14,936 nucleotides of DNA, taken from assembly GCF_003334765.1 (NCBI RefSeq), contig NZ_QOWT01000054.1. One strand, written 5' to 3'. A model generated the notes under the pieces. That model had not been told where the DNA came from. It searched no databases and saw only the letters and a list, made by a program, of their open reading frames with translations. A program made the translations under genes and the position numbers. Below, in pieces: positions 5,326 to 7,011 of the stretch. The stretch's first letter is position 1, and the number at the start of each line of letters is the position of its first letter. The DNA comes from Escherichia coli. Its GTDB lineage: Bacteria > Pseudomonadota > Gammaproteobacteria > Enterobacterales > Enterobacteriaceae.

Positions 5326-7011
5326 TTATGCAAAATCCTCAAGGTGGCGACTGATACTGTTTTCACGGTAACAGGTCACCAGTAATTCACGGGTTGCCCG
5401 GGTGAACGCCACATAAAGCACCGGAATCACTTCAGACTCATCCGCTGCACCAGAGTGCACGAAAGACGCATTGATAACCGCCACATACGGGAACTCCAGC
5501 CCCTTGCTGCTCTGGTACGTCAGTAAATGCACCACATCCTTACGTCGCGAGTATGTCTTCTTGCCTTCCCTGTCAAAACAGGTGGCAAAAGGTACCCCGC
5601 GTAGTGTCATAACGTCCTGCAATTGTTGCGCTGAACGCTCTGTCGGACACAGCACAGCCATATCACTCCAGTGACCACACAGGACATGGCGCTTCTCCAG
5701 CCAGTCTGCAACTTGTCTGGCTTCATCACGTTCAGAAGCACAACGCAGGATTTCCGGCTCTGTACCCTCTTCACCGCCCGCCTGTGGCTGAACGAGCGGT
5801 ATTTCACGGTTCTGATGTTTTTCAAAATACTCGCGGGAGAATGCATAAGCAAAGTGCAGAATGCGTTTCGGATTACGATAATTGACCGGCAGGACAGAAG
5901 TGCGTCCCTGTGCCTGAATCCCCACACTGGCCAGAGAAAAGTTCAGGGCCCGCTCCCGCCGGTAAATGGACTGGGCGTCATCGTACATCAGGAGCAGTGA
6001 ACGGGATGCGTTATCAAACAGACGGGCAATCAGGGCCAGCCAGCGACTGTCAAAATCATGCCCCTCATCCACCAGTACAGCATCATATCCGGTTCGGGTG
6101 ATTTTTCCGCTGTTCACGGCCTCTTCCAGTGTACTGAAGCATTTATCAGGATATTCTTTTCTGTCGGCCGTCACCTTAATACCGTGGCGTTTTACCATTG
6201 AGGCACACCAGCTGTGAAAATGGGATACCGTAACCCGTGACGCCAGCCCTCTGGCTTCAATGCATTCCCGCAGATAGCTGGCCAGGGTAATGTTGTAGCA
6301 CAACACCAGAATCTTTCCGGGTGTGGTTTCAGCCAGGTAAAGGCAACGGAACAAAAGAATCATGGTTTTTCCGGAACCGGCCACACCATGAATGACACGA
6401 TGCCCGTCACCAATATTTCTGGCCAGAATCTCCTGCTGAATATCCATAATTTTGATTTGTGAGTTCTGTTTCACGGTCACTTCAGGAAACAGATGGGCGC
6501 GCAGAATATCTCTCATCCGGGGTGTCAGACGGGGCGTGTCCGGCTCAAGCTCATCCCGGCCCAGCACCACCCGCCAGGTATTTTTCTTCTGGTCAGGCTC
6601 CAGAAACATTGCTGCCACACCGGTAAATTTCGCCGCATCATCCAGAGGCATATCCACGGCTACTGAACCACCTGGCTGCAGCCATACATCTTTCTGTGCA
6701 ATGATATCGCCTGCCAGAATTTCATTGTCCCCTGTAAAAAGCGCCTGATAATCCGCACTGTCAAAACTCCGGTTGTCTTTAAGCTGATAAATCCGCACCA
6801 CAACCGACAGGGGAATACCGGCAGCACTGGTGTTAATGGCCTCCCTGGCACGAATATCCAGGTGAAGTGTTTTTATCTGTCGGTAAAACAGGGATTTCGT
6901 GGCAGATACCGTACCGTCTGCCACTCTTTGCGTCAGACCGCATCCTGATAACGACAGGGAAAACAACGCAATAATCAGACCGTAACCAGCCTTACCAGCG
7001 ATAATCGCCAT
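5326..7011 (-). CDS. Chimeric ORF: TssJ-like lipoprotein N-terminal region (about aa 1-165) in frame with a compact UvrD-like SF1 helicase/ATPase core (about aa 189-561)
   Basis: ATG at 7009-7011 with AAGGAG upstream. N-terminus has a lipobox (LSLSGC) and TssJ/SciN-like motifs (PLSVVVRIYQLKDNRSFDSADYQALF; FTGVAAMFLEPDQKKNTWRVVL). C-terminal part carries the full SF1A motif set: I VIHGVAGSGKT, II VLVDEGHDF, III MYDDAQSIY, IV LPVNYRNP, V LTYQSSKGLEFPYVAV, VI LYVAFTRATRELLV. Internal in-frame ATGs at 6514-6516 and 6445-6447 lack Shine-Dalgarno sequences. Confidence 0.7.
   Translation of the reverse strand: MAIIAGKAGYGLIIALFSLSLSGCGLTQRVADGTVSATKSLFYRQIKTLHLDIRAREAINTSAAGIPLSVVVRIYQLKDNRSFDSADYQALFTGDNEILAGDIIAQKDVWLQPGGSVAVDMPLDDAAKFTGVAAMFLEPDQKKNTWRVVLGRDELEPDTPRLTPRMRDILRAHLFPEVTVKQNSQIKIMDIQQEILARNIGDGHRVIHGVAGSGKTMILLFRCLYLAETTPGKILVLCYNITLASYLRECIEARGLASRVTVSHFHSWCASMVKRHGIKVTADRKEYPDKCFSTLEEAVNSGKITRTGYDAVLVDEGHDFDSRWLALIARLFDNASRSLLLMYDDAQSIYRRERALNFSLASVGIQAQGRTSVLPVNYRNPKRILHFAYAFSREYFEKHQNREIPLVQPQAGGEEGTEPEILRCASERDEARQVADWLEKRHVLCGHWSDMAVLCPTERSAQQLQDVMTLRGVPFATCFDREGKKTYSRRKDVVHLLTYQSSKGLEFPYVAVINASFVHSGAADESEVIPVLYVAFTRATRELLVTCYRENSISRHLEDFA

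Follow-up and report, generated by a model that had tools for sequence, protein, structure and literature searches.

A probable deletion scar joining tssJ to a NERD+UvrD helicase gene at the 3' end of a decaying Sci-1 type VI secretion cluster in Escherichia coli

Results

A 561-residue reading frame with a TssJ front and a helicase core

The stretch of DNA analyzed here, referred to as the window, comprises 14,936 bp of an Escherichia coli draft contig (QOWT01000054.1, assembly GCA_003334765.1), and its central element is an open reading frame (ORF) that joins tssJ, the lipoprotein gene of a type VI secretion system (T6SS), to the gene of a UvrD-type helicase. According to the ORF list, positions 5326..7011 of the minus strand hold a single ATG-initiated ORF of 561 residues plus a stop codon; the minus-strand translation is open from methionine to stop, and the plus-strand frame is rich in stops. 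This chimeric ORF, tssJ'::'helicase, is deposited as NCBI protein RCR47513.1 and others. Its tssJ-derived part occupies 6528..7011 (minus strand) and consists of codons 1-161 and base 1 of codon 162, while the helicase-derived part occupies 5326..6526 (minus strand) and consists of residues 183-581 of the parent helicase followed by the stop codon.

The N-terminus shows a positively charged n-region and a hydrophobic stretch, followed by the lipobox L-S-G-C, which closes the TssJ signal peptide at residues 21-24 (6940..6951, minus strand, by direct reading) and is followed by glycine at position +2. Residues 48-156 match the Pfam family T6SS-SciN (PF12790) with E=4e-27, and with the NCBIfam TssJ model TIGR03352 the score is 87.1 bits, the curated cut-off being 31.6. 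In the second half, matches to the Pfam families UvrD-helicase, AAA_19, UvrD_C and UvrD_C_2 span residues 192-549, and all seven motifs of superfamily 1A (SF1A) helicases can be read directly from the translation: the Walker A sequence or motif I, GVAGSGKT (residues 209-216; 6364..6387, minus strand), Ia CYNIT (238), II VDEGHD (314), III DDAQSIY (344), IV NYRN (377), V SSKGLEF (501) and VI VAFTRA (534). The structures of PcrA, UvrD and Rep match the helicase sequence with values from 5e-15 to 1e-8. An initial sequence-only reading of the window had described one 561-residue frame with a lipobox and TssJ-like front and an SF1A back, and had singled out UvrD_C_2 and AAA_19 as families to be searched; the ORF translation, Pfam, NCBIfam and the motif reading confirm this description, and both families match the helicase region.

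Parent genes and ancestral order of the locus

Both halves of the ORF have complete counterparts in other E. coli genomes. At the DNA level, the TssJ part agrees 100% with tssJ of strains 042 and 55989, and its protein sequence shows 100% identity with the TssJ chains in PDB entries 6IXH, 6HS7 and 3RX9. The full TssJ precursor has 178 residues, of which the fusion lacks the last 16 codons (IEVSGNTLTLLPVKDK) together with the tssJ stop. Since the crystallised TssJ core reaches the final residue, with mature residues 2-155 corresponding to precursor residues 25-178 (PMC3213119), a complete transthyretin-like TssJ core is not present in the fusion, which holds precursor residues 1-162 only and carries other sequence in place of the last 16. 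The helicase parent in 042 is WP_024261658.1, a NERD+UvrD protein of 581 residues annotated as '3'-5' exonuclease', which is identical to the fusion over residues 183-581 and carries a NERD domain at residues 4-96 (Pfam) that is absent from the fusion. The fusion protein is thus TssJ 1-162 followed by helicase 183-581, with zero mismatches.

In 042 (locus L001) and 55989, tssJ and the helicase gene are separate genes on the same strand, so that the alignment of homologous loci proposed in the sequence-only reading gave a clear answer. The ancestral minus-strand order is tssF, tssG, tssJ, tssE, an ORF of 133 residues (orf133), a GIY-YIG nuclease gene, the NERD+UvrD helicase gene, an ORF of 101 residues (orf101) and an ImpA_N/VasL gene; in 042, the helicase gene is followed by the 101-residue ORF and then by ImpA_N/VasL remnants. 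In strain 55989 the cluster is complete from tssB to tssE and contains tle1 and two copies of tli1, which identifies it as the enteroaggregative Sci-1 T6SS; immediately downstream of tssE follow the GIY-YIG and NERD+UvrD genes. The helicase is therefore a normal neighbour of the cluster, and the suggestion that a helicase gene had been inserted into a T6SS cluster does not account for the fusion.

The deletion junction

Two blocks of the window, 4422-6527 and 6527-7671, are each 100% identical to 042 in the same orientation, the second block lying 3,224 bp further on. The missing segment amounts to 3,224 bp when measured against 042 and to 3,223 bp against 55989, and contains the last 16 codons of tssJ, tssE, the 133-residue ORF, the GIY-YIG gene and helicase codons 1-182, including those for NERD. 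The junction falls at position 6527, in codon 162, where a single common base (A on the plus strand) is the sole perfect overlap of both parents; the microhomology sought at this position was therefore limited to 1 nt of perfect overlap. With megablast, the helicase-side match is pushed to 6533 across two mismatches, an imperfect agreement of 5/7 (AGACGGG vs ACCCGGG). We also considered the imperfect repeat CGGGGTGTC vs CGGGGCGTGTC near the junction as the crossover site, and rejected it, as both copies are present in the product. The sequence-only reading had placed the junction near 6445-6520, which lies just short of the true site, while its estimate that TssJ takes up about the first 165 residues came close to codon 162.

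Both break points cut through domains. The parents are complete in the reference genomes, whereas each half of the fusion breaks off within a domain, which establishes that the event was a deletion and not an insertion. The reverse polarity, in which the helicase would have been inserted into tssJ, was rejected on the same ground, given that the parents match full-length profiles and structures and the fusion halves are truncated. That the two genes are joined in frame is statistically unremarkable, since a random deletion between same-strand genes will be in frame in 1/3 of cases.

Distribution of the junction among E. coli genomes

Positions 5000-7600 of the window were compared by megablast with 5,426 complete E. 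coli genomes, none of which contained a junction-spanning match in one piece. The helicase-side matches in the complete genomes end abruptly near window position 6530, and the adjoining stretch 6527-7671 is 100% identical to tssJ and tssG in these genomes. When the exact protein sequence was looked up, the 561-residue product turned up on 9 contigs, and seven loci were retrieved (L002-L008). Their sources are individual NCBI assemblies and public read runs assembled by Logan, the window itself being one of the seven. The identical 60-nt junction sequence is present in all seven (7/7), which provides the support for the junction that the sequence-only reading had called for at the level of reads, as read-run assemblies are among them. 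The fusion allele is found in ~14-16 samples in total; it is rare and appears clonal.

Variation among carriers is minimal. The window and L006 show 0 differences over 3,250 bp, and the window differs from L002-L004 by 15 single-nucleotide polymorphisms (SNPs) only, clustered at 14187-14417, with no variation in the ORF among carriers. All 15 of these differences fall within 230 bp of a DUF932-family gene, the other 14.7 kb being identical, and this clustering suggests a recombination patch or a collapsed paralogue.

The 561-residue protein appears in both NCBI and UniRef as 'type VI secretion system lipoprotein TssJ', to which NCBI adds '[Escherichia coli]'. Database entries of the chimera include RCR47513.1, CAM3800317.1, HAH2839149.1 and HAI0796381.1, and its 90%-identity cluster mixes TssJ fragments with helicase fragments, which makes it a trap for surveys of domain architecture.

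Stepwise decay of the Sci-1 cluster

Upstream of the chimeric ORF, the 3' 680 bp of tssG remain as a tssG' remnant at 6992..7671 (minus strand), which shares 20 nt with the start of tssJ, just as tssG does where the cluster is intact. The remnant ends at a second deletion junction, 7663..7671, marked by a 9-bp microhomology (CCGGGTACG), where 28,058 bp are missing relative to 55989. This deletion corresponds to positions 11937-39985 of the 55989 locus; it starts in tssG, of which the 5' part is lost, and extends through tssB, taking a few small genes with it, so that nearly the whole Sci-1 T6SS is missing. The tssG remnant now abuts an island with a Gp2-family gene and hha, and this locus no longer has tssM, tssL or any other Sci-1 gene upstream of the remnant. 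On the other side of the ORF, a third deletion junction at 4422..4423 marks the loss of 829 bp inside the ImpA_N/VasL-domain gene, leaving a 166-residue ImpA_N ORF at 4401-4901 (minus strand); the same gene is intact, with 455 residues, in the sister contig L006. In RefSeq, the ImpA_N/VasL gene of 042 and 55989 is shown as fragments (ImpA_N, POTRA and VasL-domain pieces).

The sister contig (L006, run ERR9385169) carries the same tssJ-helicase junction without the 829-bp deletion, and its large T6SS deletion is a different one: 25.6 kb are missing from mid-tssF onward (positions 13083-38641 of the 55989 locus L010), with the junction at L006 985-986. Because L006 shares the tssJ-helicase junction and differs in both other respects, the simplest reading of these arrangements is that the tssJ-helicase deletion came first and that the remainder of the T6SS would have been lost independently in two sub-lineages. 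As an alternative to this shared-ancestor ordering, the junction may have spread by recombination transfer.

Other deletions are seen at the same locus in O104:H4-type genomes. As seen in E. coli NCCP15648, which is of O104:H4 type (L009, region 3729-9069), the NERD+UvrD and GIY-YIG genes are intact, and the deletions in genomes of this type run from tssE through part of tssC and from IbrB through the ImpA_N remnant. The Sci-1 locus has thus decayed repeatedly and in different ways.

Comparison with known systems

With TssJ (SciN) of the Sci-1 system of enteroaggregative E. coli (EAEC) (PDB 3RX9, 6HS7, 6IXH; PMC3213119, PMC6517824), the fusion is 100% identical over residues 1-162 and shares the signal peptide, the lipobox Cys24, the L1-2 loop by which TssM is bound, and also the helical domain. 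Unlike EAEC TssJ, the fusion has 399 foreign residues in place of the last 16, and tssM and tssL are deleted at the locus.

The helicase half belongs with the NERD+UvrD proteins (PADLOC PDLC01087 'C3a187'; E. coli WP_024261658.1 / WP_001390303.1), with which the fusion shares the UvrD core and all SF1A motifs; unlike them, it has neither the NERD nuclease-related domain at the N-terminus nor a GIY-YIG gene as its neighbour. With the PADLOC NERD+UvrD model, the parent gives 4.9e-137 over profile positions 15-556, whereas the fusion matches PDLC01087 with 3e-98 from residue 163 to 560, over profile positions 172-556 of 559, leaving positions 1-171 unmatched. This model is the best PADLOC match of the fusion, which bears out the likeness to UvrD-like ATPases of defence systems that had been noticed at the outset; matches to GajB models are much weaker. 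With GajB of the Gabija system the fusion has the SF1A UvrD-type ATPase core in common, detected as partial hits from several models, the best with 2e-21. Membership in Gabija was considered and rejected, as the match is far weaker than that to NERD+UvrD (3e-98) and covers parts of the core only, and no match to a GajA model was found in the eight neighbouring ORFs scanned.

In the alignments, parent residues 220-299 correspond to PcrA 22-106, 333-494 to UvrD 225-380, and 482-571 to Rep 519-615; judged from these coordinates, the parent helicase would have little room for insertions of the size of domains 1B/2B. The unusual compactness first attributed to the helicase core would thus in part be a trait of the family, whose parent member appears to lack long insertions of the 1B/2B type, and is in part a result of the loss of NERD.

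The GIY-YIG gene that has been deleted from the window encodes in 042 a protein of 414 residues (L001 9308-10552), which resembles PD-lambda-1/SNIPE (DUF4041 + GIY-YIG). The PD-Lambda-1 models match with 5e-88 and 5e-82, over the C-terminal 210-290 residues only. SNIPE is the new name of PD-lambda-1, a membrane-bound nuclease that cuts injected phage DNA, and the N-terminal region of its homologues is variable (bioRxiv 10.1101/2025.11.03.685801), with which the uncovered N-terminus of the 042 protein is in agreement.

Origin of the chimeric reading frame

We consider it very probable that the 561-residue ORF arose as a chimeric pseudogene when a single illegitimate-recombination deletion struck the 3' end of an enteroaggregative-type Sci-1 (T6SS-1) cluster. 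Each half runs collinear, with near-100% identity, with its own complete and separate gene in related genomes, and the DNA lying between those genes is absent, as expected of a scar. The tssJ-helicase ORF is an ordinary scar of gene decay and no new kind of protein. Of the explanations offered in the sequence-only reading, the first, by which tssJ lost its stop at a junction scar, is thereby borne out as a 3,224-bp deletion through the comparison with 042 and 55989, and that of a genuinely odd fusion finds no support. On the two points on which that reading could have failed, the junction is no sequencing error and the N-terminus does match TssJ models.

The sequence comparisons show that the 3,224-bp deletion ended after tssJ codon 162 and before helicase codon 183, preserving the frame by chance, so that the frame opened by the native tssJ start now enters the helicase core and ends at the helicase stop. 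The T6SS would have been inactivated by the loss of tssE and the truncation of tssJ, and the rest of the cluster would then have decayed through further deletions.

With regard to the product, the 561-residue ORF may be transcribed and translated, as the native tssJ ribosome-binding site, AAGGAG, and the start codon are kept. The signal peptide and lipobox would send such a product to Sec export and lipidation, placing the helicase core in the periplasm. The periplasm contains neither ATP nor DNA, and an ATP-dependent DNA helicase is incompatible with this compartment. The TssJ module would be left without 16 residues of its core and with its partner TssM deleted, TssM being the binding partner of TssJ (PMC3213119), while the helicase half would be left without its NERD nuclease-like domain and with the adjacent GIY-YIG gene gone. 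With a periplasmic helicase, a truncated TssJ, a lost NERD domain and lost partners, neither parental function would survive, and the chimeric product is most likely non-functional, as judged from its topology and from the lost domains and partners.

Two observations weigh against a pseudogene. The first concerns expression: tssJ retains its native ribosome-binding site, and a search of the minus strand from the upstream Gp2-family gene to the ORF revealed nothing resembling a terminator, although such a scan is weak evidence; over 5200-8600, promoter and terminator hits were no more numerous than expected from shuffled sequence, so that the scan carries little weight. The second is that the ORF is intact and identical in every carrier. 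Because the carriers are near-identical across the region, the intactness of the ORF is uninformative on selection.

Several other explanations have to be considered. Internal initiation, for example at Met166 or Met189, would yield a cytoplasmic helicase core without NERD that could retain some ATPase or translocase activity. Residues 166 and 189 do have in-frame ATG codons, a short way upstream of motif I, and none of the core motifs is damaged; however, no Shine-Dalgarno-like sequence was found before any in-frame internal start between residues 148 and 210, which makes a separately translated cytoplasmic helicase unlikely, and with the NERD domain and the adjacent GIY-YIG gene deleted, the native effector context is lost. 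We regard this explanation as very unlikely. There is a similarly slender chance that read-through from the Gp2-family gene yields either an outer-membrane lipoprotein with a periplasmic SF1 core or an internally started helicase without NERD, with a selectable effect in either case. If this were true, the effect could consist, for example, in envelope stress signalling, in interference with other T6SS membrane complexes, or in a dominant-negative action on related defence helicases.

A fusion with a new function, in which the lipoprotein-helicase is expressed, exported and kept for its usefulness, appears highly improbable to us. The intact ORF, the native start and ribosome-binding site, the preservation of all helicase motifs and the possibility of read-through from the upstream same-strand gene would all agree with it. 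However, the periplasm is unsuited to an ATP-dependent DNA helicase, the break points lie inside domains and not in linkers, the allele is rare and clonal without any divergence indicating selection, and the surrounding cluster is visibly decaying. Finally, although the window is a short draft contig and the junction occurs in 0/5,426 complete genomes, we give practically no credence to an assembly chimera or sequencing error, in which the halves would have been joined in silico or a stop lost by a miscall, because the identical 60-mer and the exact 561-residue product occur in at least seven loci from different assemblies, runs and submitters and in two flanking contexts, that of the window and that of L006, and because the difference is a 3.2-kb deletion and no point change.

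Genes flanking the Sci-1 remnant

Two adjacent genes at 2755-4148 (minus strand) are low in guanine-plus-cytosine (GC) content, at 34.5% where the window as a whole has 47%, and look like the defence pair Kiwa. They encode a membrane-type protein of 186 residues similar to KwaA (3e-10) and a protein of 276 residues similar to KwaB/DUF4868 (2.4e-12); in the RefSeq annotation of 042 and 55989, both are hypothetical proteins. At 853-2714 (minus strand), an IbrB-like gene of ParB type overlaps a PAPS-reductase/DUF3440 gene that is IbrA-like, the product of which is weakly similar to models of BrxP and DndC. If the SNIPE-like and NERD+UvrD genes of related genomes are taken together with these Kiwa-like and IbrAB-like genes, a small defence island seems to occupy the 3' flank of the Sci-1 T6SS.

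At the other end of the window, an ORF of 339 residues with 37% GC at 12242-13261 (plus strand) gives no hit in PADLOC and has no recorded Pfam family. It sits in the CP4-57-like part of the island, near the AlpA, Hha, truncated GTPase and DUF932 genes.

Implications for annotation and for the decay of T6SS clusters

The chimera serves as a warning for annotation, as surveys of domain architecture could by mistake count it among natural lipoprotein-helicase fusions or among defence helicases linked to a T6SS. For the biology of E. coli, the locus provides a clean example of how a T6SS cluster, once a first hit has inactivated it, decays stepwise and repeatedly.

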